Shown piece by piece: positions 23,385-59,124 of a DNA stretch of 64,000 nucleotides (its first letter is position 1; every line of letters starts with the position of its first letter). The translations under genes were made by a program, and so were the position numbers. Below the pieces are notes generated by a model. It was not told where the DNA came from. It saw nothing but the letters and a program-made list of their open reading frames with translations, and did not search any database. Location: NCBI RefSeq assembly GCF_013122565.1, contig NZ_CP053258.1; one strand, 5' to 3'. The stretch is from Escherichia coli. GTDB lineage: Bacteria > Pseudomonadota > Gammaproteobacteria > Enterobacterales > Enterobacteriaceae.

Positions 23385-23411
23385 GTGGGTTTTTTGTTGC
23401 CTGAAATTTAT
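23385..23411. repeat. attL core direct repeat gtgggttttttgttgcctgaaatttat
   Basis: 26/27 identical to copy at 58558..58584. Confidence 0.75.
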
Positions 23412-43263: not shown

Positions 43264-45030
43264 ATGAACACCACACTGACACCCGCAGATCTCGATCCCC
43301 GTCGGCAGGCCATGCTGCTGTACTTTCAGGGATACCGCGTAGCCCGCATTGCTGAAATGCTGGGCGAGAAAGTTGCAACCGTTCACAGCTGGAAAAAACG
43401 CGACAAGTGGGGTGACTATGGGCCGCTGGATCAGATGCAGCTCACCACCGCCGCACGCTACTGCCAGCTCATCATGAAGGAGCACAAAGAAGGGAAAGAT
43501 TTCAAAGAGATTGACCTGCTGGCGCGCCAGTCTGAGCGCCACGCGCGGATCGGCAAGTTTAACAATGGCGGCAACGAATCCGACTTAAACCCTAACGTCG
43601 CCAACCGCAACAAAGGCCCACGCCGTCAGCCGGAAAAGAATGTTTTCACCGATGAGCAGATTGAGAAGCTGGAAGAAATCTTCCATTCCTCCATGTTCAA
43701 CTACCAGCGCCACTGGTGGGAAGCCGGAAAAACCAACCGCATCCGCAACCTGCTGAAGTCACGCCAGATCGGCGCGACCTTTTACTTTGCCCGTGAAGCC
43801 CTGATTGACGCCCTGCTGACCGGACGTAACCAGATTTTCCTTTCCGCCAGCAAGGCACAGGCCCACGTCTTTAAGCAGTACATCATCGACTTCGCCAAAG
43901 AAGTGGAGGTGGAGTTGAAAGGCGATCCGATGGTGCTTCCTAACGGGGCCACGCTTTACTTCCTCGGCACCAATGCCCGCACGGCCCAGAGTTATCACGG
44001 CAACCTGTATCTGGATGAATATTTCTGGATACCGAAATTCCAGGAGCTGCGCAAAGTGGCTTCCGGTATGGCTATTCACAAGAAATGGCGACAAACCTAT
44101 TTTTCCACGCCATCCAGCCTGACACACAGTGCTTATCCGTTCTGGTCCGGTGCGCTATTCAACCGTGGGCGCAACAAAGCCGATAAGGTGGACATCGACC
44201 TGTCCCACAGCAATCTGGCCCCCGGCCTGCTGTGCGCAGACGGGCAATACCGCCAGATTGTCACCGTGGAAGATGCAGTGCGCGGCGGATGTAACCTGTT
44301 CGACCTCGATCAGTTACGCATGGAGTACAGCCCGGACGAATACCAGAACCTGCTGATGTGCGAGTTTGTGGACGATCTCGCGTCTGTGTTCCCACTCAGC
44401 GAGCTGCAGGCGTGCATGGTGGACAGCTGGGAAGTCTGGACCGACTTTCATGCACTGGCACTGCGCCCATTTGGCTGGCGCGAAGTGTGGATCGGTTATG
44501 ACCCGGCGAAAGGTACGCAGAACGGCGACAGTGCCGGATGCGTGGTGGTGGCACCGCCAGCCGTGCCGGGCGGCAAGTTCCGCATTCTTGAGCGTTACCA
44601 GTGGCGCGGGATGGACTTTCGCGCCCAGGCTGACGCCATCAAAAAACTGACCGAACAGTACAACGTGACCTATATCGGCATCGACTCAACCGGCGTTGGT
44701 CACGGGGTTTATGAGAACGTGAAAGCGTTCTTTCCTGCCGTCCGGGAGTTTGTCTACAACCCCAACGTTAAAAACGCCCTGGTACTCAAGGCCTACGACA
44801 TTATCAGCCACCGCCGTCTGGAGTTTGACGCCGGGCACACCGACATTGCGCAGTCATTCATGGCAATCCGTCGCGCCACCACCGCCAGTGGCAACCGCCC
44901 GACCTATGAAGCCAGCCGCAGCGAAGAAGCCAGCCACGCCGATCTGGCCTGGGCAACGATGCACGCACTGTTTAACGAACCGCTGCAGGGCGAATCCGCC
45001 AATACCAGCAATATTGTGGAGATTTTTTGA
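43264..45030 (+). CDS. P: terminase large (ATPase) subunit P
   Basis: 588-aa ORF at P2 P position. Confidence 0.85.
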   Translation: MNTTLTPADLDPRRQAMLLYFQGYRVARIAEMLGEKVATVHSWKKRDKWGDYGPLDQMQLTTAARYCQLIMKEHKEGKDFKEIDLLARQSERHARIGKFNNGGNESDLNPNVANRNKGPRRQPEKNVFTDEQIEKLEEIFHSSMFNYQRHWWEAGKTNRIRNLLKSRQIGATFYFAREALIDALLTGRNQIFLSASKAQAHVFKQYIIDFAKEVEVELKGDPMVLPNGATLYFLGTNARTAQSYHGNLYLDEYFWIPKFQELRKVASGMAIHKKWRQTYFSTPSSLTHSAYPFWSGALFNRGRNKADKVDIDLSHSNLAPGLLCADGQYRQIVTVEDAVRGGCNLFDLDQLRMEYSPDEYQNLLMCEFVDDLASVFPLSELQACMVDSWEVWTDFHALALRPFGWREVWIGYDPAKGTQNGDSAGCVVVAPPAVPGGKFRILERYQWRGMDFRAQADAIKKLTEQYNVTYIGIDSTGVGHGVYENVKAFFPAVREFVYNPNVKNALVLKAYDIISHRRLEFDAGHTDIAQSFMAIRRATTASGNRPTYEASRSEEASHADLAWATMHALFNEPLQGESANTSNIVEIF

Positions 45031-46064
45031 TGGGAAAGAGTAAGAAGAACCGAGCTGCGGCGACGAAACAGATCCAGCTTAAAAGTCAAACTACAGCCGA
45101 AGCATTCAGCTTCGGCGATCCCGTTCCTGTTCTGGACCGCCGAGAATTACTGGACTATGTGGAATGCGTACAGATGGACCGTTGGTATGAGCCGCCCGTC
45201 AGCTTTGACGGACTGGCGCGCACCTTCCGCGCTGCAGTGCATCACAGTTCCCCGATTGCAGTAAAGTGCAACATTCTGACCAGTACCTACATCCCTCACC
45301 CGCTGCTCAGCCAGCAGGCTTTTTCACGTTTTGTGCAGGACTATCTGGTATTTGGTAACGCCTACCTGGAGAAACGCACGAACCGATTCGGTGAAGTTAT
45401 CGCCCTTGAGCCTGTGCTGGCAAAATACACCCGACGCGGGTTAGACCTGGATACCTACTGGTTTGTGCAATACGGCATGACTACACAGCCGTATCAGTTC
45501 ACGAAAGGCAGCATTTTTCACCTGATGGAACCGGATATCAACCAAGAGATCTACGGCCTGCCCGGTTATCTTTCTGCCATTCCGTCAGCCCTGCTCAACG
45601 AGTCCGCCACGCTGTTCCGCCGCAAGTATTACATTAACGGCAGCCACGCAGGCTTCATCATGTACATGACCGACGCCGCGCAGAACCAGGAGGATGTAAA
45701 CAACCTCCGTAACGCGATGAAAAGCGCCAAAGGACCAGGCAACTTCCGTAACCTGTTTATGTACTCGCCGAACGGCAAAAAGGACGGGCTTCAGATCATC
45801 CCATTGTCTGAAGTCGCGGCAAAGGATGAGTTTCTGAATATCAAAAATGTTAGTCGCGATGACATGATGGCGGCACACCGCGTGCCGCCGCAAATGATGG
45901 GGATTATGCCTAATAATGTTGGGGGGTTTGGGGATGTGGAGAAAGCGAGTATGGTATTTGTGAGGAATGAATTAATTCCTCTACAAAGGCGTTTAGAAGA
46001 GCTTAATTTGTGGCTAGAAGAGGAAGCCATAAAATTCAAACCATACAATTTATCAGATAATTAG
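45027..46064 (+). CDS. Q: portal protein Q
   Basis: 345-aa ORF overlapping P stop, P2 Q position. Confidence 0.85.
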   Translation: MMGKSKKNRAAATKQIQLKSQTTAEAFSFGDPVPVLDRRELLDYVECVQMDRWYEPPVSFDGLARTFRAAVHHSSPIAVKCNILTSTYIPHPLLSQQAFSRFVQDYLVFGNAYLEKRTNRFGEVIALEPVLAKYTRRGLDLDTYWFVQYGMTTQPYQFTKGSIFHLMEPDINQEIYGLPGYLSAIPSALLNESATLFRRKYYINGSHAGFIMYMTDAAQNQEDVNNLRNAMKSAKGPGNFRNLFMYSPNGKKDGLQIIPLSEVAAKDEFLNIKNVSRDDMMAAHRVPPQMMGIMPNNVGGFGDVEKASMVFVRNELIPLQRRLEELNLWLEEEAIKFKPYNLSDN

Positions 46065-46071
46065 AATCATG

Positions 46072-46108
46072 GCCCTAGTATATTATCATTTTCACTAGGG
46101 CTTTCTTT
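46072..46108. terminator. hairpin plus T-rich tract between convergent Q and retron RT
   Basis: gccctagt..actagggc stem followed by tttctttct. Confidence 0.5.
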
Positions 46109-47869
46109 CTATATGCTGCATATTTTTTTATAATGTTCAAAAACATCTTTAAAAGTGTTGAGTATTATTTCAAAACCACTAAAATCAACTTTTCGTTTTT
46201 TATCCCTAACTACTTTCACAGAGAAAACATGTTTCCCATATTCAGTTTTTGAGTCCCCATCGTTCTTTTTGTTAAATTTTTTACCACCAAGAATAGTTGA
46301 TAATACATCATGAGTAAAAAGATCTTCCATCGCAGTCTGCTCACCAGTAGCACTTAAAGGCGTTAGAATGATATAGAGATTTTTAAAGACATGGATAAAT
46401 CTCATTTTTCTCATTTTATTGGTATCATCGGGGCAGCTCTTAACATTATTTTTAAGGAAATTCAAAATCTCATTAGAACCAGAATCGTTGTCCAATACCA
46501 TGATAACCGGGTGCTTAGGAATGCTTCCATAGTAGCTTGAATATTCATCCATATATCTTTCGATGAATTTTTTAAGATCTGCGCTACCTCCAGACATATT
46601 AATAAAATAACTTGACTTCTCATCAGATTTAAAAATATTCAAGTTGATATCATTTCCTTTACCGTCTGTGCTTTTCTTGAGCAACTCAGGAAATTTGGCA
46701 GAAAGTGAACGAATAGCTGATTTTAAATATACTCGATCAGTTTTGCCTTCTGTCAAGATTGTCGGGGAAGCATGTCCATGAAAAAACTTGTAGTAAATAA
46801 ATTTACTATATGCCTTCTCTCGTACATTCAGCTTTAACCTGTAGTTTTTTAATGTAATATGAATAGGCGCATATTTTTCAGGCTGTTTACTTATTTTATC
46901 TTGTATGTTATTAAATTTATCAATCTGGTCAATAAACCCAAATCTTCCCTCTAGTTTTTCGATACTCCCCACGACTAGCTTACCATCTTCATCAGGTAGC
47001 TTATATTCTCCCTTACTATAAAGTGAATGAGCTAATGCTCTTGTTTTATTCGAATATTTCCTATCAACGTTAACAAATCTATTTATAGTAAGTCCCGTAA
47101 CTTCTTGTCTCGTGGATTTGTACGAGATCCTTGTTTTAGCATCATTAATATCAAAACCAGCACGTTTTATTTCACTGACAAGAATGCTCCCCAAGACAAC
47201 CCCCTCAGGAAGAGATATTGCCAAATCGGTAGGAAATTCTTTTTTATTAGTTGAAAACGTGATGTCATCGGCATAACGACTATATGAACAACCTAAACTC
47301 TTTGCTAATTTAGCTAATCTAATATCCATAATGCTACAAATTAAGTTTGTTATCACTGGAGAACACGGGCTACCCTGAGGCAAACTTCCCTTATAGCATG
47401 CGGCTTTAGCTAAAGTAGTGGCGACAATCGGATTTAATAAGAAATCCCTATTGGATAGGAAGTACCCTCTCACTCGCCCAAAATTAAAGCTTTTGAAAAA
47501 ATCCTTAAGATCAATATTGAGTATTATATTTTTCCCACGATGTCTGAAAGCATTGGAAATTATTGACTTATTTCTTTCAAAACCAAAGGAGTAATTGTTT
47601 TTAATTTTTTTAATTTTGAAAGTTTCATCTCTACACTCCATTAAAAGATCGGCTATTCGTCTTTGGAGATCTTTCAAACTATCTTCTGGCGCAGAAATCA
47701 ATCTGACTCCCTTACCTTTTTTTGGAATAGAGAAATCTTTATACTGATTATCAGTACCAATTCTGTAAAGAATATTCGTTAAAAACACCAACTTAACATC
47801 TAGCAATTTTGCCAAGTCAGCACGAGATGCTGCGACTTTCAAAAGTAGTAATTTAGAAGTTGCGACCAT
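46109..47869 (-). CDS. ret: retron-type reverse transcriptase with C-terminal Toprim-like domain (Ec67/Retron-Eco2-like)
   Basis: 586-aa ORF; RT motifs [12 protein letters not shown] and YADD; C-terminal ..ILTEGKTD.. and ..VLDNDSG.. resemble Toprim E and DxD motifs; about 33% GC. Confidence 0.8.
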
Positions 47870-47908
47870 AATTATATTTTATCGTAGAAGTTAGTAAGAG
47901 AGGAAGAA

Positions 47909-48037
47909 CGCATGTAGGCACTCCTTCGCACAGCACAACGGCCCTATAGCGACGAAACAAGGATGTCAGGGATGCGATTCCACCTGCCATTAAAATCACT
48001 GGTTGTGATACACAACCAACAAATCTGCCTACATGCG
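47909..48037 (-). ncRNA. msr-msd: putative retron msr-msd non-coding RNA
   Basis: 12-bp perfect inverted repeats cgcatgtaggca (47909..47920) and tgcctacatgcg (48026..48037) flank a 105-nt region 40 nt upstream of RT start; G follows a1; internal hairpin ggttgtg-ata-cacaacc. Confidence 0.5.
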
Positions 48038-48105
48038 CATAAATGAAACTACCATTTCAACGTCTTCATTTCCAGTAATATATTTCAAATATCTACACTG
48101 AGCGC

Positions 48106-48124
48106 GCGCTCGTATCCCCGCCAC
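48106..48124 (-). other. putative cos (cohesive-end) site
   Basis: Minus strand GGCGTGGCGGGGATACGAG; first 13 nt match the P2/186 cos 5' motif GGCG(A/T)GGCGGGGA as I remember it. Confidence 0.4.
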
Positions 48125-48158
48125 GCCTGCCCGCTTTATGTAGTGGTTTTCATGCAGG

Positions 48159-48228
48159 TGCATGATCTACGCAAAAGCCCGCCAGTTCTGGCGGGCCTTA
48201 GCAAAAACGATCCTCAAACGATCATGCA
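48159..48228. other. compound palindromic structure (9-bp outer IR enclosing a 9-bp GC hairpin)
   Basis: tgcatgatc...gcccgccag tt ctggcgggc...gatcatgca seen directly; function unknown. Confidence 0.4.
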
Positions 48229-48469
48229 ATCTCATGCAGCATAGACATGCACAGACGAGTAAAGCGAATCGGACCTTACGCAAGGTGAACTCCTCAGCGG
48301 GCATAATCAGTATGTCGGAAGATCTCTAAAAATAAATAATTCGGTTAACAGGTATGCTTACAAAAGCATATATTTGATTAAAAATCATGTAAGGGGGAGG
48401 ATCTCAAACTGAATCGCCACGGGTTTTACAAATTTCGATAGTCTCTCTAACGTTTCGGCTGAGGTCAAA

Positions 48470-48895
48470 ATGAAAAGCTTTTACGTATTAATTTTAATTC
48501 TGGTTGCAAGCTTTGTTAGCGTCCCAGTTCAGGCGGTAACAGCTAAAAACTATGAGAAAGGAACTAAAGCTCAACAGAAATCAATATCTTACCTTTCATG
48601 TGCATTCTATGGCAGTAGCACACAATTAGATCCTAGCTACACGGAGCAAGTACCTACAGCCGATATCAAGATATTACAGAAAGCAGCTTACCACGCTTAC
48701 AACGATGCGCTCTCATACTTTGGCTATGAGGAACCAGATCACGAACAACGCATAATTGATTATGCTGAATTTGTGGCGTCGCAAGAAGCTGTGTTATGGG
48801 ATAAGCCGGGAATGAATGGAAAGCAGGTAACACTAATTGCTCGTTCTCTCTACAATGAGAGTAACTGTAACTTGTTACTGGACTCAATTAAGTAG
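48470..48895 (+). CDS. hypothetical secreted protein (signal peptide)
   Basis: 141-aa ORF MKSFYVLILILVASFVSVPVQA...; AT-rich; opposite strand to neighbours. Confidence 0.6.
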   Translation: MKSFYVLILILVASFVSVPVQAVTAKNYEKGTKAQQKSISYLSCAFYGSSTQLDPSYTEQVPTADIKILQKAAYHAYNDALSYFGYEEPDHEQRIIDYAEFVASQEAVLWDKPGMNGKQVTLIARSLYNESNCNLLLDSIK

Positions 48896-49054
48896 GAAAA
48901 AGATGGTATTTTGCCCGTAGTTTCAACCTTAATCTCCGAACCTGTCGCAGAACGGGCGTTCACTCATCAAATAAACGCCACACCTAACGCCTCACTGTAC
49001 TCGTTGTTCAACCTTGCTGACGCCAGAACCAAGTTCAGACGCCAGCAACTTTTC

Positions 49055-49288
49055 TTAATGCAGCCAGCTGTCGTCTTCCCACACCTTCTGCATAATCTTC
49101 ATCACTTGTTTTCTTTCTTCGTCCAGTTGCAGTCCGGTCAGTTCCACACCGTTAGAGCTACCTTTGCGGATGCGAATTACCGTTTTGGGATACAGGGGGC
49201 GCAGATTGCGGTAAAGCTCGGATTCAAGGGCGTCCAGGGTAGACTGGCTAATCTTCTGCTCTTTATCGATCATTATTTCAATGCGCAT
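49055..49288 (-). CDS. DinI-like protein (Tum/antirepressor C-terminal-domain-like)
   Basis: 77-aa ORF MRIEIMIDKEQKISQSTLDALESEL...WEDDSWL resembling the DinI family; GAGGTGA RBS upstream. Confidence 0.7.
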   Translation of the reverse strand: MRIEIMIDKEQKISQSTLDALESELYRNLRPLYPKTVIRIRKGSSNGVELTGLQLDEERKQVMKIMQKVWEDDSWLH

Positions 49289-49298
49289 AAAGGTCACC

Positions 49299-49487
49299 TC
49301 AGCTGATGACATCCATTGAGCGGTTGTATTCGTGGGTTCTGATTTTTGCCATGAGTTCATCAGTCAATTCAGAAACCCACTGCAGAGCCAGCCCCTTCTC
49401 TTCATCACTACACTCACTAGCCGCTACAAGCTTAAGAAAAAAATCAATGCGCTGGAGCTTCAAAGACTCCAAAAAATAGTCCTGCAT
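49299..49487 (-). CDS. hypothetical small protein (first gene of LexA-box-associated operon)
   Basis: 62-aa ORF just upstream of the DinI-like gene. Confidence 0.5.
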   Translation of the reverse strand: MQDYFLESLKLQRIDFFLKLVAASECSDEEKGLALQWVSELTDELMAKIRTHEYNRSMDVIS

Positions 49488-49529
49488 CTTTCCTCCTATG
49501 ACACCAAAGCAATACTGTATATATAACCA

Positions 49530-49545
49530 CTGTTTATATTTACAG
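49530..49545. promoter_or_regulatory. LexA box (CTGT-N8-ACAG)
   Basis: ctgtttatatttacag 43 bp upstream of the 62-aa ORF start; adjacent half-site tactgtatatat. Confidence 0.7.
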
Positions 49546-49639
49546 TATATAATAATCTTACTGATGTAAAACGTTTTTTTACGTTCATCAGCCTGAAATG
49601 CCTGGTATTATTAAGAGCACGAATTGTTAACCCGCGTAA

Positions 49640-52054
49640 TTAATACAGGTTCCGCCACTTATCATCTTCCTGCAAACGCTGGTTCCGATAGAAGATACGC
49701 AGGCCTGCTCCTGACGGAATACTGCCGCCGCGAAGGAGTAAATCGACCTCTTTCTCGCTGCCATCAAATCCTCTGGACTTCAGTTCATAGACGAGCTGCT
49801 GTCGCTGATGGTCTGTAATTCGCTGTTTGTAGTCTTTACGCCGTTTCGGTTTCACCAGGCGTAACCTTGCAGCCAGTTCCCGGCGCTCTTTTTTGCTCAT
49901 ACTGTGCAGGTATTCGTGCAACTCCTTGTCATCCATGCGGGTAATGTCCGTTCTGGTATCCCCATCAGCTGATTTGTCTTTCCCTTGTTGGTTCAAATTT
50001 TCAGCAAGGGGACAGTTATTGCCACGAGTCCAAGGGGCGCAAGCGCCCTGGTCGGCTACCGCCTCCTGAACGTCAACGGCTTTACGAACCATTTTCCACT
50101 TCACTGCATGAGTGCAGATCTTGCCCTCTGCAATGGGTGACCAGATGCCATAAATACGAATGCCGTGATCGCCATAGGCGGTCGGCTCTTCGTTAATTTC
50201 ATAAGCAGTTCTGATGAGGTGATATTTGCGGGGAACCAGTACGCCGCCCTGCTTCATGATGTAAGTGGCAAAACAACCAGCATCAGCAGCAGCCAGGATT
50301 GCATCAAGGCGCGGGTTATCCAGTACCGGCGCACCTGCTTTTTTGTCCCCCTGTTGCCTTGCCGCCTGACCAGCCAACAATCGCAGTTCACGGTAAGCCT
50401 GACGCCCCGGAATGCCAAAGAAGCGGAATTGCTGAACACGATGCAAAGACGCCCAGGCATTCACGTATTCAGCGTTATCACGCAGAGATTTACCCGTTTC
50501 CTTGCTGATCTCGCCAGCCAGACCACGCCCGTCAATGTTCTTACTGATGTATTTCGCGATGTAGCTTGTTGGCGTACCTTTGCGCGGGTTTATCAGCTCA
50601 GACTTAAAGCGTGGTCCCGTGTTATTACCCAGCTCCTCGCGGTCTTCACGAATGGCAAACTTACGCAACAAAGCAGTAATGGCTCGGCGATCTTTTTTGC
50701 GCATAAAACACAACAGGTGCCAGTGCACTGTACCGTCATGATGCGGCTCAGCCACCCGCACGCCATACCAGCGCAATCCGGCTTTGTGCATCGCTTTACG
50801 AAATGCAGCAAACATGCCGACCAGATAATCACTGCTTTGTCTTACCGTCGCGTTTGTCCAGGTCGGGTTTGGTCTGCCGTTATTTAGCGTGGAATGGAAA
50901 CGTGACGGACAGGTGATGGTGTAGAAAACGGCGCAGTCACCGCGCATTTCCGCGATAAGCTCCAGACCTTTAACACAGGCCATCATCTCATTGCGGCGAT
51001 GCGCAGGGTTGCTGCTGCTGGCGTTTACCACGTCTTCCATATCCAGCGTGTCGCCGTCTTCGTTCACCAGTTCATGAGAACGAAAAAACTCCAGCGACTT
51101 ACGGCGCTGCTCACGTTTATGCATCACGGCTTCATAGCTGACATAGGGAGATGCTTTTTTGCTGACCAGGCAGACAGCGCGCAACTGCTCTTCCCGCCAT
51201 TCGCAACGCATCTTCCATAATTTCCGATACCACCAGTCGGCGCACAACATACGCGCCAGCGAACCCGGAATGAGTTCATAGGGCACGGGTTTACGGCGGT
51301 TTCTTTTCCGGCGGAGTTGCTCAAACGCAGGTGGGATGACATCCAGTCGCAGGGTTTCTGCTGCCACCCTTTCCCATGTCTTGCGGATTTCTTCTGGCTT
51401 AACGTCATCGGTGGCATACAAATCGCCACAAGCTGCATCAAGGCACATGCTCATATGCGCAGCTACCAGGGTGGACAGGCGTTTCACCTGATCCTGACTC
51501 ATTTCAGGCAGGATCAGCAGGCCGTCCAGCCCTTCCTGGCTCGCCATAAAGCGAAAAGCAGTGGATAGCTGACTGTCGCGTACATGCTCCAGCCGTTCCA
51601 GACATGGCTTAATCGTCTCACGCAAATAGCGGGAATAAGCCTTTGGCCTGCCCAGGCTGCTGAAGTATTCAATACGTTGCATCAGCGGCTTGCTGATATG
51701 GGAAGGCTGGGCGTTAACGTCCGCCAGAATGACCATGTCTGGATTAAAACGCTGCTGCTCATGCGCCAGCTTTGCCCGGCTAATGAGCTTATCCTGCTCT
51801 ATTTCGCGTTGGACAGGATCACGGGATTCATTAAAGAAATAACGCTCCCAGACCTGATCACTCAGAGCCTCGCGGCGCAGTTGTTCCTGCTCGTTATCGG
51901 CAGCGTACAGAGTGATCAGGTTTGAAAGCGCAGAAACCGGCGCAACTTCCGCCGGGTCCAGATAAGGGTTAATGGCCTTTTTCGGGCTGTTCCATGAGAA
52001 TGCTGCGGCGACCTCGTTAAAGCCGCTGCAGTTGTTCATATCATCATGGCTCAT
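49640..52054 (-). CDS. A: replication initiation protein A (rolling-circle nickase)
   Basis: 804-aa ORF at P2/186 gene A position. Confidence 0.85.
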
Positions 52055-52908
52055 GCACGCACTCCGTACATGGCAGAACTATCCACGCCACGCGAAGGAT
52101 CAAATCCCACCCAGCAGCGCGCCCCGGAAACAGCAATGATTTCTGTTGCAGATTTACTCTCGCCAGCCGACACGCCGATGCTGCGTTTTGCCTTGATGTA
52201 GTGGTGAGTGAAATTGCGATACAGCGAACGAATCAGGGATGTGTCACTGTTAGAAACAATGACCGGATGTCCTTCAGATGCTCGATGTTCAAGAACGGAT
52301 GCCAGGTGATACTGGTCATCTTCAGTGAAACCATCAGTGTGATAGCCGGAAAACGTACCGTCATACGGCGGATCGCAATACACCACATCCCCCGCCTTCA
52401 ACATCGCCAGCGTTTCATCAAAGCTGGCGCAGATAAACGTTGCCCGCTGGGCTTTTTCTGCAAATGCGCGAATTTCTTTTTCAGGGAAATACGGATTTTT
52501 ATAATTACCGTAGGGAATGTTGAAATGCCCGCTCTTGTTATAGCGACATAAACCACGGTAACCGTGACGATTGAGATACAGGAAATATACCGCTTTCATG
52601 AAATCAGTAATTTCAGTGGAGTAATTAAACTCCTGCCTTATGTTGTAATAAGCCACCTCCCTGTTTGCGATCTCAAATAAAACTCTGGCGCGAGATATAA
52701 ACGATTCACAATCAGCGGCAACCTTTTTATAGAGGTTGATTAAATCAAGATTAATATCCGCAACCAGATAGCTTGGATAATCCGTCTCCATCATCACAGC
52801 ACAGGAACCCGCGAAAGGTTCAACCAGTCGCGGGCCAGCAGGAAGGTGTTTTTTCAGTTCGGACATAATTGCGGTTTTATTTCCCGCCCATTTCAGGATG
52901 GTGCTCAT
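52051..52908 (-). CDS. DNA adenine methyltransferase (Dam-like, phage-encoded)
   Basis: [11 protein letters not shown]..., DPPY catalytic motif, [16 protein letters not shown]; resembles E. coli Dam. Confidence 0.85.
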
Positions 52909-53132
52909 ACAGCACCTCCGTTGTAATGTTTGCCTTTCAGCTCTGCGATTTCCTGACAGGTAATGCAAAGCTGCACTCCCGGAATGGCGCGGCGTCGTGC
53001 TGGCGGAATTGGCGCTTCACATTCAATGCAAAGTACGCGTGACACGCCCGGTGATTTGGCACGGGCTGCACGGATATGGCGCTGGCGTTCTTCTTCAACG
53101 CGCTGCTGTACGAGATCCATTGCATCAGCCAT
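52905..53132 (-). CDS. TraR/DksA-family C4 zinc-finger protein
   Basis: 75-aa ORF with CIECEAPI...CITCQ. Confidence 0.7.
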   Translation of the reverse strand: MADAMDLVQQRVEEERQRHIRAARAKSPGVSRVLCIECEAPIPPARRRAIPGVQLCITCQEIAELKGKHYNGGAV

Positions 53133-53371
53133 TAGTGGATCTCCTGCGCTTCGTTCTGGATTGCTTCAGCAGTGACACGCAGCAGTTCTGCCGCTTCGAC
53201 GTGGTTTAGCTGGCGGGATGTGATATGACACGCCAGGCTATCAAGGCGAGCTGCCATTGCTTCAGCCCTTGCCCGGCGCTCTTCCAGACGAGCCTCTGTC
53301 AGTAAAATATTAAGCCCTGCGTCATCCGGTCCGGTTTTAGTCGTGAGGGTTTCAATATTACGCATAATCAA
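53132..53371 (-). CDS. hypothetical phage early protein
   Basis: 79-aa ORF in early operon. Confidence 0.5.
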   Translation of the reverse strand: MIMRNIETLTTKTGPDDAGLNILLTEARLEERRARAEAMAARLDSLACHITSRQLNHVEAAELLRVTAEAIQNEAQEIH

Positions 53372-53432
53372 TTCTCCTGAATTTAGATAAAGGAATGCCC
53401 GGCGGGTTTACGCCATGAATTTCATTAGTTGG

Positions 53433-53774
53433 TTAATTCGGCATGGTTAGCCGTCTGGGAAATAAGCTCACCACTGCACGAAAATGATTCATTGCTTTAA
53501 TCAGCTCCCGCTTTTCGTCAGTGGTCAGCTCATTAATGCTGATGCTATGACGTTCAGCTGGAATTTTTGCCATAAAGAATATAGCAGCTAGTGCCCGTTT
53601 ATTTTGTTCATTATTGATATCCCGTGGATCACGCATATCTTTAATAAACCGCTCAAGCTCTGACTCAATATTCAGGCCAAAAACTTTCGCCCTTAATTCC
53701 GCTATGTGATTAAGTCCATTCAGGCGTTCACCGGGGCTTAATGGAACAGTCGCCGCAGCGCCATTAATTGCCAT
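53433..53774 (-). CDS. hypothetical phage early protein
   Basis: 113-aa ORF in early operon. Confidence 0.5.
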   Translation of the reverse strand: MAINGAAATVPLSPGERLNGLNHIAELRAKVFGLNIESELERFIKDMRDPRDINNEQNKRALAAIFFMAKIPAERHSISINELTTDEKRELIKAMNHFRAVVSLFPRRLTMPN

Positions 53775-53796
53775 AATTCATATCCCCAAAACGCAA

Positions 53797-54021
53797 CTAT
53801 CGTTCTTTGTTCTTACGGTAACGTTCAAGAGGAGATACATTTTTTCGTATCGTCTCTTTAACCTGCTCTCCCCGTAAAAACGTCCCATCCTTTAACGCGA
53901 AAAAGTAACTGCCATCGCCCGACAATGACGGATAGCAACAGAGCAAATCATCTTCAGGTACTGAATAACTCTCCCCTCTGTAACGAAACTGATAAACCAC
54001 TTCACTTTCTGCCGCATACAT
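53797..54021 (-). CDS. hypothetical phage early protein
   Basis: 74-aa ORF. Confidence 0.45.
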   Translation of the reverse strand: MYAAESEVVYQFRYRGESYSVPEDDLLCCYPSLSGDGSYFFALKDGTFLRGEQVKETIRKNVSPLERYRKNKER

Positions 54022-54188
54022 TTGGACTTTCTCCGTTTCCTCATGGTCAATTCAGACAGCAATTCATCTTGTGAATGACATGGATGCCAGCGTTTTCCAT
54101 CCTCACCCGTGATCCAGCCGTGACCGTAGTGCATTGCCGGGCTTTGTTTTACCAGCAGCGATGCAAATGATGGTTCTTTCGTCAGCAT
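53892..54188 (-). CDS. hypothetical protein (overlaps previous ORF in another frame; uncertain)
   Basis: 98-aa ORF with GAGGTG RBS. Confidence 0.3.
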   Translation of the reverse strand: MLTKEPSFASLLVKQSPAMHYGHGWITGEDGKRWHPCHSQDELLSELTMRKRRKSKCMRQKVKWFISFVTEGRVIQYLKMICSVAIRHCRAMAVTFSR

Positions 54189-54195
54189 AAGCACC

Positions 54196-54705
54196 TCACA
54201 GCAAACCGAATGAAGCACCGAGGCCAGTCACGGTATCAACTGCACTCGCCATCGCAGGGTTAGCCTGTAAACGGGCCTGCAATGAAACAGCAGCCAACGC
54301 CATCAGTCGTGTTACAGAGTTAATGCTGCTGATAGCATCACGACGACCTGCACTGGTTTTTACATCGCCAGATACCGCACCTGCAGCAACACGCCCGATC
54401 TCTGCGGTTGCACTCATGACGTAATGTGGCAGTTTCTCTTTTGCCACCTCATTAATCGGTACGCATGGCAGGCAGTGAATCTGAGCCAGAAAACCATCTA
54501 CCAGCGTTGAATCTTCAGTCAGATCGGTAAGCAGCCAGATTTCTGGTGCGGTTAATAAATGAGGTTGAGCCGGGTTCAGCTTGTTCCGCAGAATCTGCAC
54601 ATTCATGCCAGCACGTTCTGCCAGTTGCACCAGGTTGTGGCGCAGCGCGAATGCACGACAGGCTTCATCAAAATGTGGATGTTTGGAAACTTGGTAATCA
54701 AACAT
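54196..54705 (-). CDS. B: replication protein B-like
   Basis: [25 protein letters not shown]... at gene B position. Confidence 0.7.
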
Positions 54706-54737
54706 GGTCGACACCTCTGATGTATCCCAAAATGGAA

Positions 54738-54959
54738 CTAGTTGAATACAACATTGCAATCAGTAAGTGCATCAACGGTAAGAGCAGCAAGGTTGATCAT
54801 TACTTTTTCTCTTTTCTTGTCTTTACGAAGACGATGCCGAGGAATGCGACCATCCGCCAACATATCGTTGATTGTGTCGATTGAAAGACCAGTAAGTTCG
54901 CTATAACGCTCGATTGTGACGTGTGGCGTATTCAGAGTTATTGAAATGTTAGGGGTCAT
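54738..54959 (-). CDS. Apl/Cox-like excisionase and transcriptional regulator
   Basis: 73-aa ORF, first gene of lytic operon, divergent from cI. Confidence 0.6.
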
Positions 54960-55009
54960 GATGCAACATCTCCTATTGGCTTGTGGTGAGCCTGTAGTAA
55001 TCGCGACAA

Positions 55010-55025
55010 GTACCCAATTGGGTAC
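55010..55025. promoter_or_regulatory. perfect 16-bp palindrome GTACCCAATTGGGTAC in immunity switch region
   Basis: Between divergent apl/cox-like and cI starts; candidate operator. Confidence 0.5.
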
Positions 55026-55054
55026 AAAACTGATACTAGGATCGCAAAAGAGAT

Positions 55055-55651
55055 ATGTCAACATCAAAGTACCCAAGTGAGATCAAAATAAATCCCAATA
55101 AAGGTGGTAAGGCTGCGATTGAGCGATTAGTCGAAGCCTATGGCTTTACGACACGACAGGCTTTAGCTGATCACTTGGAAGTATCAAAAAGCACACTAGC
55201 GAACAGGTATTTGCGGGATACATTTCCTGCTGACTGGATAATCCAATGTGCTCTTGAAACAGGAACCTCCCTCAAATGGTTAACTACCGGACAAGGCCTT
55301 AAGCAAAGCTCGCTGACAGCAGCTACAGAAGAGCTTGTTAAGTTTCGCCTTGCCGCAGGCAAAATGATTGAAGACGGTTCATATGTCTTCGATTCATCAT
55401 TTCTTCCTGCAAACCTTTCATCACCAATTGTTATTCAGGATGGACTCGTCACATACATTTGTGATCAAAAATTTTCTGAAGTACTTGATGGAAACTGGTT
55501 AATCAATATCGACGGAACCTATTCCATTCGAAAAATCACAAGGCTTCCTAAAGGAATGATTAAAATTACAACAGCAGAGAATAGCTTTGAATGTGCATTT
55601 TCTGATATTGAAGTGGTTGCTTGTATAAGAAGTACAATAGTCTCGAATTAA
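55055..55651 (+). CDS. cI: CI-type immunity repressor (186-like)
   Basis: 198-aa ORF, HTH N-terminal region; divergent from lytic operon. Confidence 0.75.
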   Translation: MSTSKYPSEIKINPNKGGKAAIERLVEAYGFTTRQALADHLEVSKSTLANRYLRDTFPADWIIQCALETGTSLKWLTTGQGLKQSSLTAATEELVKFRLAAGKMIEDGSYVFDSSFLPANLSSPIVIQDGLVTYICDQKFSEVLDGNWLINIDGTYSIRKITRLPKGMIKITTAENSFECAFSDIEVVACIRSTIVSN

Positions 55652-55671
55652 TATAGTAAAAGGATTTTAAA

Positions 55672-57348
55672 ATGAATTCATTTGCCATCGTTATACTCTT
55701 ATTAGCATTTCTCGCCCCTGTTCTAGCTGTAATATTATTTAAACAAAGTAAAAAACACAAAGCGGCTATAGATAACCTGACAGCTAACAACATAGCCCTT
55801 TCTAACCAACTGATTGAAAATCAAGAAAAACTAGCACAGACCGTACGAGAATTATCAGATCTTGAAGGGCGAGCAGCACCATTGTGGCAATACGAAGAAT
55901 TGCACAGCGCAGTAATGGATGCAGAGAATAAGATAAAAAATGCGGACTCAATAGCCAAGCAAAAAATAGATGAAGCCCAAATTAAGGCGGCTAAAACAGT
56001 AAACGAAGCAAATTATCAAGCTCAGATAACAATAAGCAACGCTAATAGCGAAGCTATAGCAATCACCAAAGACGCTCGCGATGCACGCCTGAAAGCCAAA
56101 GAACGTCTTGATAATGCTAATAATAAAGCAAATGAGCTAATCTCAAATGCTAATGACAATGCAGTAAAAATTATTTCTGATGCAGAAGAAAGAGCAAAGG
56201 AGATTGCTGGTTCAGCATATGAAGCTAAAGAGTTTGCAGAAAAATATGAAGCAGTTGCAAAATCAATGAAAAATAAAATTGAAGGTTATGGTGATGAATG
56301 GATCATCCCTAACCGTAGTGTACTTGATGAGCTGGCAGAAAATTATGAATTTACAGATGCAGGCAAGGAATTACAAAAAGCCAGAGAGTTAACCAAATCA
56401 TTAATAAAAACTAATAAAGCTGCTTCGTGTGATTATGTTGAGCAAAACAGGCGTAATACTGCCATAAACTTTGTTTTGGATGCCTTCAATGGAAGAGTTG
56501 ACAGTATTTTATCAAAAGTCAAACACAACAATTTTGGAAAACTTTCCCAAGAAATAAAAGATGCATTTCAACTAGTAAATTACAATGGCTCTGCCTTTAG
56601 GTCCGCAAAAATAAGTGACATCTATCTTCAGGCAAGACTCAACGAGCTAAAATGGGGTGTAGCAGTTAATGAAATTATGCTCGAAGAAAAAGAAGAGCAA
56701 AGAAGGATTAAAGAACAGCTTCGTGAAGAGGAAAGAGCTCGTAGAGAATATGAAAAAGCGATAAAAGAAGCTGAAAAAGAAGAAAAAGCTATTCAGCAAG
56801 CTATAAATAAAGCAACGAAAGAACTTATGCTTGCAAATGAAGAACAACGCTTAGCTTTAGAGCAAAAAATAGCTGAACTACAGTTAAAATATGAAGAAGC
56901 TGAAGCTAAAAATCAACGAGCTATTTCTATGGCTCAACAAACCAGATCAGGCCACGTCTATATCATTAGTAATATTGGTTCATTTGGCGAAGATGTATAT
57001 AAAATTGGAATGACACGCCGCCTTGAACCACTTGATCGTGTTCGTGAACTCGGAGATGCTAGTGTTCCTTTTTCGTTCGATGTTCATGCGATGATTTATA
57101 GTGATGATGCACCATCATTAGAAAACCATCTGCATAAAGTTTTCAACGAAAAGCAGGTCAATAAAATTAACTCACGAAAAGAGTTTTTTAACGTAAATTT
57201 AAAAGAAATCAAATCAGTTATTGAAGACATGAACATCAACGCCCACTGGACAATGTTTGCAGAGGCGAAAGAATATAGAGAGTCTCTAGCTATTGAGCAG
57301 GAGCGCAAAGCAGCCACTTCCGCCAACGATGAACTACATGTTGCTTAG
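55672..57348 (+). CDS. membrane-anchored coiled-coil protein with C-terminal T5orf172/GIY-YIG-like domain
   Basis: 558-aa ORF; N-terminal TM; long coiled-coil repeats; C-terminal GHVYIISN...YKIGMTRR...RVRELG; about 37% GC; between cI and int. Confidence 0.65.
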   Translation: MNSFAIVILLLAFLAPVLAVILFKQSKKHKAAIDNLTANNIALSNQLIENQEKLAQTVRELSDLEGRAAPLWQYEELHSAVMDAENKIKNADSIAKQKIDEAQIKAAKTVNEANYQAQITISNANSEAIAITKDARDARLKAKERLDNANNKANELISNANDNAVKIISDAEERAKEIAGSAYEAKEFAEKYEAVAKSMKNKIEGYGDEWIIPNRSVLDELAENYEFTDAGKELQKARELTKSLIKTNKAASCDYVEQNRRNTAINFVLDAFNGRVDSILSKVKHNNFGKLSQEIKDAFQLVNYNGSAFRSAKISDIYLQARLNELKWGVAVNEIMLEEKEEQRRIKEQLREEERARREYEKAIKEAEKEEKAIQQAINKATKELMLANEEQRLALEQKIAELQLKYEEAEAKNQRAISMAQQTRSGHVYIISNIGSFGEDVYKIGMTRRLEPLDRVRELGDASVPFSFDVHAMIYSDDAPSLENHLHKVFNEKQVNKINSRKEFFNVNLKEIKSVIEDMNINAHWTMFAEAKEYRESLAIEQERKAATSANDELHVA

Positions 57349-57430
57349 CAATGTATGTTTCATAGTAATCACACATTGATTACTGGTTACATATACAGTT
57401 AAATTTAGCCCTCTGATATGAGGGCTTTTT

Positions 57431-58486
57431 ATGGCAGTACGAAAACTAACCACAGGGAAATGGCTTTGCGAATGTTACCCCGCCGGACGTAGCGGACGCC
57501 GTGTGCGTAAACAATTCGCCACCAAAGGCGAAGCACTGGCCTTCGAGCGATACACCATGGGGGAAATAGAAGCAAAGCCCTGGCTGGGCGAATCAGTGGA
57601 TCGTCGGACACTGAAAGATATGGTTGAGCTATGGTTCAAATTACATGGCAAATCTCTTACTGCCGGACAGCATGTCTACAACAAGCTGCTGTTGATGGTT
57701 GACGCCTTGGGAAATCCCCTTGCAACTGATCTCACCTCAAAAATGTTTGCTCACTATCGCGATAAACGCCTTACTGGTGAAATCTACTTCAGTGAAAAAT
57801 GGAAGAAAGGAGCAAGCCCAGTTACTGTTAACCTGGAGCAAAGCCATCTAAGCAGCGTTTTCAGAGAACTTTCCCGCCTGGGTGAATGGACACTTCCAAA
57901 CCCATTAGAGAAGATGCGCAAATTCACTATCGCAGAAAAGGAAATGGCATGGCTTACACATGAGCAGATTATCGAATTACTGTCTGACTGCAAACGTCAG
58001 AACCCAATTCTGGCACTGGTGGTAAAAATATGTCTAAGTACAGGCGCACGTTGGCGAGAAGCAATCAATCTTACCCGCTCACAGGTCACCAAGTACCGAA
58101 TCACCTTTGTGAGAACGAAGGGGAAGAAAAACAGAAGCATCCCTATCAGTAAAGAGCTTTATGAAGAGATCATGGCGCTCGATGGGTTCAATTTCTTCAC
58201 AGACTGCTATTTTCAATTTTTATCCGTGATGGAAAAAACGTCTATCGTTCTCCCTCGCGGTCAACTGACACACGTTCTGCGCCATACGTTTGCGGCGCAC
58301 TTCATGATGTCGGGTGGAAACATCTTGGCCTTACAAAAAATTCTCGGACACCACGATATAAAAATGACTATGCGTTATGCGCATCTGGCACCGGATCATT
58401 TGGAAACGGCGCTCCGTTTCAATCCACTGGCAACGTTACCAAATGGCGACAAAGTGGCGGCAGCGGTTGGCATTACCCCGCAATAA
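57431..58486 (+). CDS. int: tyrosine integrase (P2/186 family)
   Basis: 351-aa ORF with R..HxxR..Y catalytic pattern (TGARWREA...LRHTFAAHF...MRYAH). Confidence 0.85.
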   Translation: MAVRKLTTGKWLCECYPAGRSGRRVRKQFATKGEALAFERYTMGEIEAKPWLGESVDRRTLKDMVELWFKLHGKSLTAGQHVYNKLLLMVDALGNPLATDLTSKMFAHYRDKRLTGEIYFSEKWKKGASPVTVNLEQSHLSSVFRELSRLGEWTLPNPLEKMRKFTIAEKEMAWLTHEQIIELLSDCKRQNPILALVVKICLSTGARWREAINLTRSQVTKYRITFVRTKGKKNRSIPISKELYEEIMALDGFNFFTDCYFQFLSVMEKTSIVLPRGQLTHVLRHTFAAHFMMSGGNILALQKILGHHDIKMTMRYAHLAPDHLETALRFNPLATLPNGDKVAAAVGITPQ

Positions 58487-58557
58487 CCACCACTGACCAC
58501 CACATTAAGTTATTGTTTTTTATCTAACTTATTGTTTTTATTAACCCATTTAGATAA

Positions 58558-58584
58558 GTGGGTTTTTTGTTGCCTAAAATTTAT
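58558..58584. repeat. attR core direct repeat gtgggttttttgttgcctaaaatttat
   Basis: 26/27 identical to attL copy; 3 bp from rcdA stop. Confidence 0.75.
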
Positions 58585-58587
58585 CTA

Positions 58588-59124
58588 CTACCCTGCAACC
58601 CTCTCAACCATCCTCAAAATCTCCTCGCGCGATAGCGGCTTACGGTCGGTGACAAAATGCAGCGTCATCCCCTCAATAAACGCATCAAGCGCGCGGGCGG
58701 TTCCGGGTTCAAACCATTGTTCGAGCGTTTGCTGACTGCGCTGCATCCAGTTTTGCATTACCGTTTTTAATAGCGGTTTTCGGCTAGCCAGCGCGTAGAG
58801 CTGGTACATCAGCTCCATGTTATCCGGCGTTGCCACCTGTGAGCTGTAGATCATATCGGTGATAGCCTGGCATGCGCCTTGAGCATCACGAACATCGCTA
58901 AAAAATGCCTGATATTGCCGGGACATGATCTCAGTAAAACTGCTGAACGCCTCCAGCAACAACTCATCAATTCCTGAAAAATAGTAGGTCATCGATCCCA
59001 ACGGTACCCCGGCAAGGGTAGCAATTTTGCGGTGCGTAACAGCATGTATTCCGTAAAGTTTCACCGCCTCCAGCGTGGCCTGGATAATTTTTTCTCGCCG
59101 TTGCGGATCGTTAGCGCGACGCAT
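58588..59124 (-). CDS. rcdA: TetR-family regulator RcdA (YbjK)
   Basis: [25 protein letters not shown]... Confidence 0.88.

Follow-up and report, generated by a model that had tools for sequence, protein, structure and literature searches.

Based on the combined evidence of profiles, alignments, a structure model and genome comparison, the gene at 52051-52908 of the window (the whole 64,000-nucleotide stretch of Escherichia coli DNA that was analysed) is identified as a solitary Dam-family methyltransferase of a P2-like prophage. We consider it likely that the enzyme is active on the adenine of GATC and, when the Dam of the host is limiting, maintains the methylation of phage DNA during replication. 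The gene itself is ordinary and already described, being the long-known phage Dam of the "retron Ec67 / Fels-2-type". New in this analysis is the finding that P2-like phages possessing it tolerate GATC, whereas their Dam-less relatives avoid it.

Identity of the prophage methyltransferase

Open reading frame list and sequence agree on a minus-strand frame of 285 aa, running from an ATG at 52908 to a TGA stop at 52051-52053, whose product is exactly WP_171459588.1. The features of the gene discussed below are as follows.

52051..52908, minus strand, stop included: dam, Dam-family (D12 class) N6-adenine DNA methyltransferase (open reading frame, profiles, alignment, model)
52801..52815, minus strand: AdoMet-binding motif I, F32-A-G-S-C36 (alignments)
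52501..52560, minus strand: DNA-recognition hairpin region, residues 117-136, with Y117, L120, R122, P132 and Y136 (alignment, residue roles from the literature)
52363..52374, minus strand: catalytic motif IV, D179-P-P-Y182, encoded by GAT CCG CCG TAT (sequence; aligned with D181-Y184 of E. coli Dam, EcoDam)
52054..52128, minus strand: clade-specific C-terminal tail, residues 261-285 (alignments)

The protein belongs to the Dam family of the D12 class (alpha group) by profile, motif order, GATC-contacting residues and fold alike. Its match to Pfam PF02086 (D12 N6-adenine methyltransferase; E 1.9e-75, 254 bits at a cut-off of 22 bits) covers model positions 1-253 of 253, and NCBIfam TIGR00571 (dam) is matched with 322 bits at a cut-off of 114.85, both far beyond chance. 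The EcoDam structures 2g1p/4gol are matched at E 1e-73, with 47% identity to EcoDam over 257 aligned residues. The score of 287.9 bits against NF008152, the equivalog model of housekeeping Dam, falls below the cut-off of 441, and the gene is a phage paralogue distinct from the host dam. Searched with Foldseek, the AF2 model (pTM 0.76) retrieves EcoDam first (E 5e-27, TM 0.86 normalised to target); the next matches are DpnM and T4 Dam, the latter having the same fold at only ~22% identity, and all of these are GATC enzymes.

Along the chain, F32AGSC36 is followed by the hairpin 117-136 and then by D179PPY182, so that fold, motif order, DPPY and GATC-contact residues are as in EcoDam (PDB 2G1P). 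Residues K6, Y117, L120, R122, P132 and Y136 are the counterparts of EcoDam K9, Y119, L122, R124, P134 and Y138, for which roles in GATC contact have been described (PMC4417163). Within the phage clade, the counterparts of K9, Y119, R124, P134 and Y138 are invariant in 58/58 sequences and that of L122 is kept in 56/58; the D, P and Y of DPPY are kept in 57/58 and its second P in 56/58. The first two DPPY codons, GAT CCG, themselves embed a GATC site. Unlike EcoDam, the prophage enzyme is phage-borne and under lytic-operon control, and it differs in several residues. The last Gly of the motif I signature FxGxG is Cys in 58/58 clade members; N120, described as base-contacting yet non-discriminating (PMC4417163), is Arg (R118) in 58/58; R137 is replaced by Asn (Asn or His across the clade); and five residues are deleted after DPPY. 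Because of the exchanges of N120 and R137, together with the deletion, kinetics or flanking-sequence preference may differ from those of EcoDam.

A further difference is the conserved tail of 25 aa, with the consensus W266-x-G-x-D270-x-[AS]-x-G-x-D276-x-[ST]-V, which host Dam does not have and which the AF2 model leaves without confident structure (pLDDT <50). Residues 266-279, predicted to be disordered, could conceivably act as a docking peptide tethering the methylase to gpA or the host replisome, although we hold this to be improbable; if true, docking would make methylation co-replicational and so permit GATC tolerance in this one P2-like lineage.

The methyltransferase is a solitary one. 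No restriction endonuclease partner was found for it, its neighbours being a TraR/DksA zinc-finger gene and the gene for gpA, and a nuclease domain was absent from the eight other small or uncharacterised prophage open reading frames tested, cargo candidates included. The best PADLOC model for dam is that of an orphan methyltransferase (oMTase, 2.8e-111). The original prediction of a Dam-like adenine methyltransferase, with exactly these coordinates, a DPPY motif and orphan status, is thus borne out, as is its placement of the gene inside the early/replication operon considered below.

Operon position and distribution

The genetic context of dam is defined by the following features.

49640..52054, minus strand: gene A, rolling-circle replication nickase, 804 aa, downstream of dam (PF05840, E 8e-128)
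52905..53132, minus strand: TraR/DksA-type zinc-finger gene, upstream of dam (PF01258, E 3e-11; phrog_54)
55033..55061, minus strand: candidate pR-like early lytic promoter, TTGACA-17-TAGTAT (consensus scan; position analogous to phage 186 pR)
23385..23411, no strand assigned: left attachment-site direct repeat, 27 nt (direct repeat search)
58558..58584, no strand assigned: right attachment-site direct repeat, adjoining the integrase gene at 57431-58486 (direct repeat search)

The attachment-site repeats are identical in 26/27 positions, lie 35,173 bp apart and delimit a Fels-2/186-like prophage of 35 kb at the rcdA-side attachment site, with an integrase and P2-type structural genes. Facing the candidate pR, which abuts the cI gene, the operon reads apl-like, cII, DUF5347, DUF2732, traR, dam, A, and dam is the eighth open reading frame of this lytic operon. 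In the consensus scan, the candidate pR was the sole promoter-like site upstream of dam on this strand. Four-base ATGA overlaps join the stop of the TraR-like gene to the start of dam and the stop of dam to the start of A, and the Shine-Dalgarno sequence of A (GGAG) falls within the last dam codons. In the annotation of phage 186, translation of A requires that the open reading frame in the same slot be translated to its end. No terminator or regulatory hairpin like 186 tM1 was found at the dam-A junction, the only fold there having a z of -1.9, which is not significant.

The arrangement suggests that transcription of dam starts at an early lytic promoter under CI repression and that its translation is coupled both to that of the preceding TraR-like gene and to that of nickase gene A, which follows. 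Because of this transcription and coupling, we infer that Dam would be synthesized as phage DNA replication sets in.

Comparison with related phages identifies dam as a backbone gene of the Fels-2/RE-2010/SopEPhi-type (Felsduovirus-like, 186-related) P2-like phages. It is found directly upstream of A in 80/80 IMG/VR loci having this type of gene A and is absent from 80/80 186-type and 80/80 P2-type loci. The TraR-Dam-A arrangement with overlapping stop and start recurs in RE-2010, ST437-OXA245phi4.1 and SopEPhi. At the nucleotide level, the gene is 97% identical to its counterparts in RE-2010 and KP12; SopEPhi Dam, at the same gene position, is 72% identical as a protein, and many Klebsiella phages have dam in that position too. 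Among complete E. coli genomes, 1238 of 5426 (~23%) contain the gene.

GATC tolerance and the role of the methylase

The host DNA flanking the prophage has a ratio of observed to expected GATC of 0.99, the prophage itself one of 0.75. Dam+ loci show a median of 0.79 (0.70-0.95, n=77), compared with Dam-less medians of 0.30 in the 186-type (n=70), 0.24 in the P2-type (n=76) and 0.48 in P88; as a whole, the Dam-less P2-, 186-, PSP3- and P88-type relatives are strongly GATC-avoiding (0.1-0.5). Shuffling of synonymous codons gave ratios of 0.71-0.82 for four Dam+ phages, 0.12-0.52 for four Dam-less ones and 1.01 for the host; at equal coding constraints Dam+ P2-like phages have ~3x the GATC density of Dam-less ones. 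GATC is the largest difference between Dam+ and Dam-less phages among 136 tetramers (z = 5.0), and the only one strongly released from avoidance, in a contrast that sets one Dam+ lineage against three Dam-less ones and thus comprises few independent evolutionary events, not 230. Mild depletion persists in the Dam+ phages (~0.8). From the side of genome composition, the relaxed avoidance indirectly supports an active GATC methylase that would keep replicating phage DNA methylated. Phages with a Dam of their own are said to escape GATC counter-selection, an observation reportedly made by McClelland in 1984 and by Deschavanne and Radman in 1991.

The counter-selection of GATC in enterobacteriophages has been ascribed to the action of MutH where phage DNA is poorly methylated (PMC5014478, citing Deschavanne & Radman 1991 and McClelland 1984), and endogenous Dam is described as limiting for high-copy DNA (bioRxiv 10.1101/2020.06.22.160242). 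We therefore suggest that, while host Dam is limiting, the prophage Dam would ensure full GATC methylation of phage DNA that replicates fast and is present in many copies, and that full methylation would remove the cost which un- or hemimethylated GATC incurs through MutH cutting, SeqA binding or GATC-specific restriction. Protection of the phage DNA from restriction was one of three roles envisaged for the enzyme at the outset; of these, the GATC tolerance favours protection at GATC, while avoidance of MutH and avoidance of restriction are both compatible with the comparative data, which do not distinguish between them.

Were restriction the sole agent, progeny DNA would be pre-methylated against MboI/DpnII-like Type II systems, with consequences for host range, and MutH and SeqA would be uninvolved. 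We regard this as possible, yet distinctly less probable than the broader function. The conserved GATC-reading residues and the relaxation of avoidance in Dam+ lineages only are in keeping with it, as is the finding that relatives carry other DNA-modification genes in the position upstream of A (SW3 a cytosine methyltransferase, 186 a PAPS-reductase-like gene), and phage Dam has been described in these terms (bioRxiv 10.1101/2020.06.22.160242). However, the known hosts (Escherichia, Salmonella, Klebsiella) all have their own Dam, which should already confer the protection. If host methylation of replicating phage DNA is incomplete, the anti-restriction explanation collapses into that of maintained methylation under limiting host Dam. 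To our knowledge, no GATC-specific restriction system is common in these hosts.

A regulatory use of the methylase, with GATC methylation timing phage transcription, origin use or packaging, has precedents in the pac cleavage of P1 and in Mu mom. Co-expression of dam with the replicase would suit it, and both the switch region (54795, 55040, 55081) and gene A do contain GATC sites. The sites were considered as a regulatory sign and rejected, since they do not cluster in gene A or the switch region beyond expectation (9 observed in gene A vs ~10 expected). Closely related phages of the 186- and P2-type follow the same programme despite having hardly any GATC and lacking Dam, and a regulatory use would leave the genome-wide relaxation of GATC avoidance unexplained; we thus find it unlikely.

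Very improbable is the further role initially envisaged, an alteration of host GATC methylation in the lysogen; epigenetic switches or the mutation rate might change with it. Host physiology is known to respond to Dam dosage, and one paper speculates that an amplified related Klebsiella prophage with dam might affect resistance. However, an effect in the lysogen is made unlikely by the position of dam far down a repressed lytic operon: the consensus scan revealed no promoter-like site on the same strand between pR and dam, the annotated counterpart operon of 186 is CI-repressed with internal terminators, and the GATC sites of the host are already methylated by host Dam.

The neighbouring retron and the Ec67 element

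Two features belong to the retron, which lies ~4 kb from dam, beyond gpA and an SOS operon.

46109-47869: retron reverse transcriptase, RT-Toprim type I-C, 586 aa
~47908-48040: retron msr/msd, located by eye from inverted repeats

An Rfam scan of 44000-59000 at gathering thresholds returned no family, nor any retron ncRNA model. The reverse transcriptase is 71% identical in amino acids to the one Ec67-type enzyme seen among the 80 IMG/VR loci, and the closest complete E. coli genomes show ~87-89% nucleotide identity across the 7.2-kb stretch from retron to dam; the retron is a diverged variant of the Ec67 family.

A precedent for functional interaction, the other possibility raised in the original prediction, is the triggering of retron Sen2 by Dam overexpression via GATC methylation in msDNA (bioRxiv 10.1101/2020.06.22.160242). 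Three GATC sites occur here within 60 bp (48164, 48209, 48220), ~125-180 bp upstream of msr. Hsu et al. reportedly noted, in 1990, three GATC sites in the promoter region of the reverse transcriptase. As retron-specific elements the three upstream sites were rejected, the same DNA being present in retron-less prophages: homology of the phage backbone with these resumes at ~48080-48100 and covers all three. No GATC is found within 47669-48163, msr/msd included, leaving the msDNA template without a site. Retrons are also rare in the lineage, for dam is present in 80/80 of its loci vs an Ec67-type reverse transcriptase in 1/80 and one of any type in 5/80. A match to 80% or more of the stretch between retron and dam is seen in only 13 E. 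coli genomes vs the 1238 with dam, and in RE-2010 an AIPR/Abi gene occupies the slot where this prophage has its retron cargo. By reverse transcriptase co-occurrence and by GATC in msDNA, Dam thus fails as a retron accessory or effector. An obligate link is already largely refuted, and there is scarcely a chance that the msDNA is a substrate of Dam or that expression of the Ec67-type retron is under Dam control; adjacency of methylase and retron gives no warrant for assuming a functional link.

The "Retron Ec67 DNA adenine methylase" goes back to Hsu, Inouye & Inouye 1990 (PNAS 87:9454), the title of which claims Dam function. It is the same family member as the prophage Dam, which shares a 90%-identity cluster with a protein bearing the name "retron EC67 DNA adenine methylase". 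The Felsduovirus orthologues (RE-2010 gp10, SopEPhi orf8, and those of Klebsiella phages KP12 and 4LV2017) share with both the length of 285 aa and the TraR-Dam-A synteny. The Ec67 element is described as having '26-bp direct repeats', matching those of this prophage, and resembles it further in its size of ~34-35 kb, its repeats of 26-27 bp, its place next to rcdA/mdfA and its Ec67-type retron. Compared with the Ec67 system, the methylase shows no substantial difference and the adjoining retron is the diverged part. On the E. coli map, the rcdA/mdfA insertion site falls at ~19 min.

Described in 1990, annotated in RefSeq and found in ~23% of the complete genomes of E. coli, the gene has little weight as a discovery; the original prediction did not recognise it as one already described. 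Its importance lies in the natural contrast within one phage family, a convenient system for the unsettled cause of GATC avoidance in enterobacterial phages, be it MutH, SeqA or restriction. Like the prophage Dam, the T4 and T2 enzymes are solitary GATC adenine methylases of enterobacterial phages, and the Dam of P1 is a phage-encoded solitary GATC methylase as well. Unlike all of these, the prophage Dam is encoded by a gene of a temperate P2-like phage whose translation is coupled to that of a rolling-circle replicase gene. Klebsiella phages ST16-OXA48phi5.4 and ST147-VIM1phi7.2 carry unrelated Dam genes.

The dam gene and its enzyme

Exactly as the original prediction had it, the open reading frame at 52051-52908 encodes a Dam-like methyltransferase with a DPPY motif.

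52051-52908, minus strand: dam ORF, 285 aa, ATG at 52908, TGA stop at 52051-52053 (ORF list and sequence)
Residues 32-36, minus strand: motif I, F32AGSC36 (sequence)
Residues 179-182, minus strand: catalytic DPPY (sequence)
52054-52128, minus strand: clade-specific C-terminal tail, residues 261-285 (alignment; absent from host Dam)

In Pfam, PF02086 (D12-class N6-adenine DNA methyltransferase) spans the protein over the whole model (E 1.9e-75), and the NCBIfam model TIGR00571 'dam' reaches 322 bits (cut-off 115). The score for the housekeeping-Dam equivalog (288 bits; NCBIfam) lies below the 441-bit cut-off, which makes the protein a paralogue within the Dam family rather than the product of the host's own gene. 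The nearest solved structures are those of E. coli Dam (EcoDam; E 1e-73), and MG1655 Dam shares 47% BLASTP identity across 257 query residues. A structure search with the AlphaFold2 model (pTM 0.76) returned EcoDam first (E 5e-27, TM 0.86 normalised to target), then DpnM and T4 Dam, all three of them GATC enzymes. The residues with which EcoDam reads or opens GATC, namely K9, Y119, L122, R124, P134 and Y138 (Horton et al., PMC4417163), are all kept in the alignment as K6, Y117, L120, R122, P132 and Y136; L120 is present in 56 of 58 diverse phage-clade members and the other five are invariant. Distinct from EcoDam, the clade has Arg at the N120 position and Asn or His at the R137 position throughout, lacks five residues directly after DPPY, ends motif I in Cys instead of Gly, and carries the additional 25-residue C-terminal tail.

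Homologues of 70-97% identity keep the tail pattern W-x-G-x-D-x-[AS]-x-G-x-D-x-[ST]-V (clade alignment: W266 52/58, G268 49/58, D270 50/58, A/S272 58/58, G274 51/58, D276 53/58, S/T278 54/58, V279 49/58, V283 56/58). The final dam codons are under constraint from the Shine-Dalgarno sequence of gene A; conservation of the motif upstream of these codons looks like conservation at the level of the protein. With pLDDT <50 in the AlphaFold2 model the tail is predicted to be disordered, and we speculate that it could be a docking peptide.

The gene is already known as a widespread, annotated phage Dam. The exact protein is WP_171459588.1 in NCBI, and its 90%-identity cluster, 4038 members in size, includes a protein with the name 'retron EC67 DNA adenine methylase'. 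At 96-97% nucleotide identity, dam matches DNA (adenine) methyltransferase genes of Salmonella phage RE-2010 and many Klebsiella phages, orf8 of SopEPhi is annotated as 'similar to retron EC67 DNA adenine methylase', and 1238 of the 5426 complete E. coli genomes carry this gene.

GATC tolerance of Dam-carrying phages

A role in protecting phage DNA, proposed originally with restriction in mind, is supported in a broad sense by the GATC tolerance of phages with this dam (Dam+) compared with Dam-less relatives. Against a maximal-order Markov expectation, GATC observed/expected is 0.75 in the window prophage, 0.79 in RE-2010 and 0.99 in the host flanks; SopEPhi and ST437-OXA245phi4.1, whose Dam is ~71-72% identical to that of the window, reach 0.80 and 0.76. 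Phage 186 stands at 0.13 and a P2-like genome at 0.25 (z near -11 for both), Dam-less P88 at 0.48. Among 240 IMG/VR loci sampled around three types of gene A, dam is directly upstream of A in 80/80 loci with the window-type A, and Dam occurs in 0/160 loci with the other two types. Median ratios, for loci of at least 8 kb, are 0.79 in Dam+ loci (range 0.70-0.95, n=77), 0.30 in the 186-type (n=70) and 0.24 in the P2-type (n=76). Under a second null, with synonymous codons shuffled within genes, four Dam+ phages come out at 0.71-0.82, four Dam-less ones at 0.12-0.52 and host genes at 1.01. When all 136 strand-symmetric tetramers are compared without bias (Dam-less phages L004, L005, L007 and L008 versus the Dam-carrying window prophage, L006, L009 and L170), GATC differs most (z = 5.0). 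The second-largest difference is in GGAC/GTCC (0.63 Dam-less, 1.01 Dam-carrying), and GGCC is strongly depleted in all compared phages and host flanks (0.49-0.75). The GATC contrast as a whole sets a single Dam+ lineage against three lineages without Dam, so it involves few independent events, and it cannot tell MutH from restriction or SeqA.

Counter-selection of GATC in enterobacterial phages is attributed, in the account of PMC5014478 (citing Deschavanne & Radman 1991 and McClelland 1984), to MutH attack on fast-replicating, poorly methylated DNA, and the cell's own Dam is a limiting factor on high-copy DNA (bioRxiv 10.1101/2020.06.22.160242). The footprint fits both ideas; the contrast within the P2-like phages neatly confirms a long-standing principle and is not a discovery. 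Altered host methylation in the lysogen, also envisaged originally, is unlikely, because the host methylates its GATC sites anyway and dam lies deep in the lytic operon, CI-repressed in 186-type phages.

Prophage and early operon

The window is E. coli chromosome, with rcdA, ybjJ and mdfA flanking its right end; rcdA and mdfA lie at 19 min, where the element of Hsu, Inouye and Inouye (1990) reportedly maps as well. The P2/186-like prophage within the window (35.2 kb; integrase, 186-type CI repressor, CII, P2-type portal, terminase and tail genes, gpA replication nickase) is the same kind of prophage as that element, which PMC7826664 describes as ~34 kb with 26-bp flanking direct repeats, retron Ec67 and a Dam ORF.

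23385-23411 and 58558-58584: 27-nt direct repeats, prophage boundaries
55061-55033, minus strand: candidate pR-like promoter (consensus scan only)
49055-49285, minus strand: DinI-like gene (PF06183)

Facing the pR-like promoter are, in order, an apl-like gene, cII, two small ORFs, DUF5347, DUF2732, a TraR/DksA zinc finger, dam and A; the consensus scan found no further promoter-like site on the minus strand from pR to dam. ATGA overlaps connect the TraR stop with the dam start and the dam stop with the A start, and the GGAG Shine-Dalgarno of A is inside the last dam codons. Phage 186 is annotated with three non-essential genes in the slot between zinc-finger gene and A, and according to its record A translation apparently needs the last slot gene translated to its end; by analogy with that gene, dam would be translationally coupled to replicase gene A. 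The slot is variable among P2-like phages, often with DNA-modification-type genes: Dam in the window prophage, a cytosine methyltransferase in SW3 (MK972714.1), exonuclease-like and PAPS-reductase-like genes in phage 186 (L005 24890-26747), PAPS reductase and Dam together in one E. coli prophage (H38).

A LexA-box-like CTGT-N8-ACAG at 49530-49545 precedes a 62-aa ORF (49299-49487) and the DinI-like gene (region 49055-49560, minus strand). The arrangement is similar to those of the SOS-controlled tum operon in phage 186 and tumA/tumB in PSP3, which suggests an SOS-inducible prophage.

The retron and other cargo

46109-48040, minus strand: Ec67/Eco2-family retron (RT-Toprim + msr/msd)
~47908-48040, minus strand: msr/msd, bounded by inverted repeats ATGCGCATGTAGGCA and TGCCTACATGCGT
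48164, 48209, 48220: GATC trio inside a 60-bp span, ~125-180 bp upstream of msr

The retron (RT-Toprim of 586 aa, type I-C; PADLOC RT-Toprim_I-C, 6e-213; no matching model in Rfam) is a cargo insertion that separates the portal gene from a phage terminator; RE-2010 carries an AIPR/Abi gene in that cargo slot. The suggested interaction of Dam with it finds no support, given rare co-occurrence and the lack of GATC in msr/msd. Any retron RT is found in 5/80 Dam+ IMG/VR loci and an Ec67-type RT in 1/80; this RT, the only one of its type among the 240 P2-like loci, shares 71% amino-acid identity with that of the window. A match to 80% or more of the 7.2-kb stretch from retron to dam is seen in only 13 E. 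coli genomes versus 1238 with dam. The retron has diverged from copies elsewhere: in the closest complete E. coli genomes the whole stretch is ~87-89% identical in nucleotides. GATC is absent throughout 47669-48163, and a Sen2-type mechanism, in which Dam methylates GATC in the msDNA stem (bioRxiv 10.1101/2020.06.22.160242), therefore cannot apply.

The three GATC sites flank a GC-rich terminator-like hairpin (~48169-48197), the phage terminator. Hsu et al. (1990) reportedly noted three such sites in the promoter region of the RT; the window trio may correspond to them, though it lies in phage backbone DNA common to retron-less prophages (E. coli genome matches H39, H40).

48470-48895, plus strand: 141-aa ORF with signal-peptide-like N-terminal segment, between retron and DinI-like gene
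55672-57348, plus strand: 558-aa DUF4041 + T5orf172/MUG113 protein, between cI and int

The 141-aa ORF, without a Pfam match, is on the strand opposite to the early genes, in DNA common to retron-less prophages. The 558-aa protein matches the PADLOC defence model PD-Lambda-1 (3e-120) and its gene is a second piece of anti-phage cargo in the prophage.
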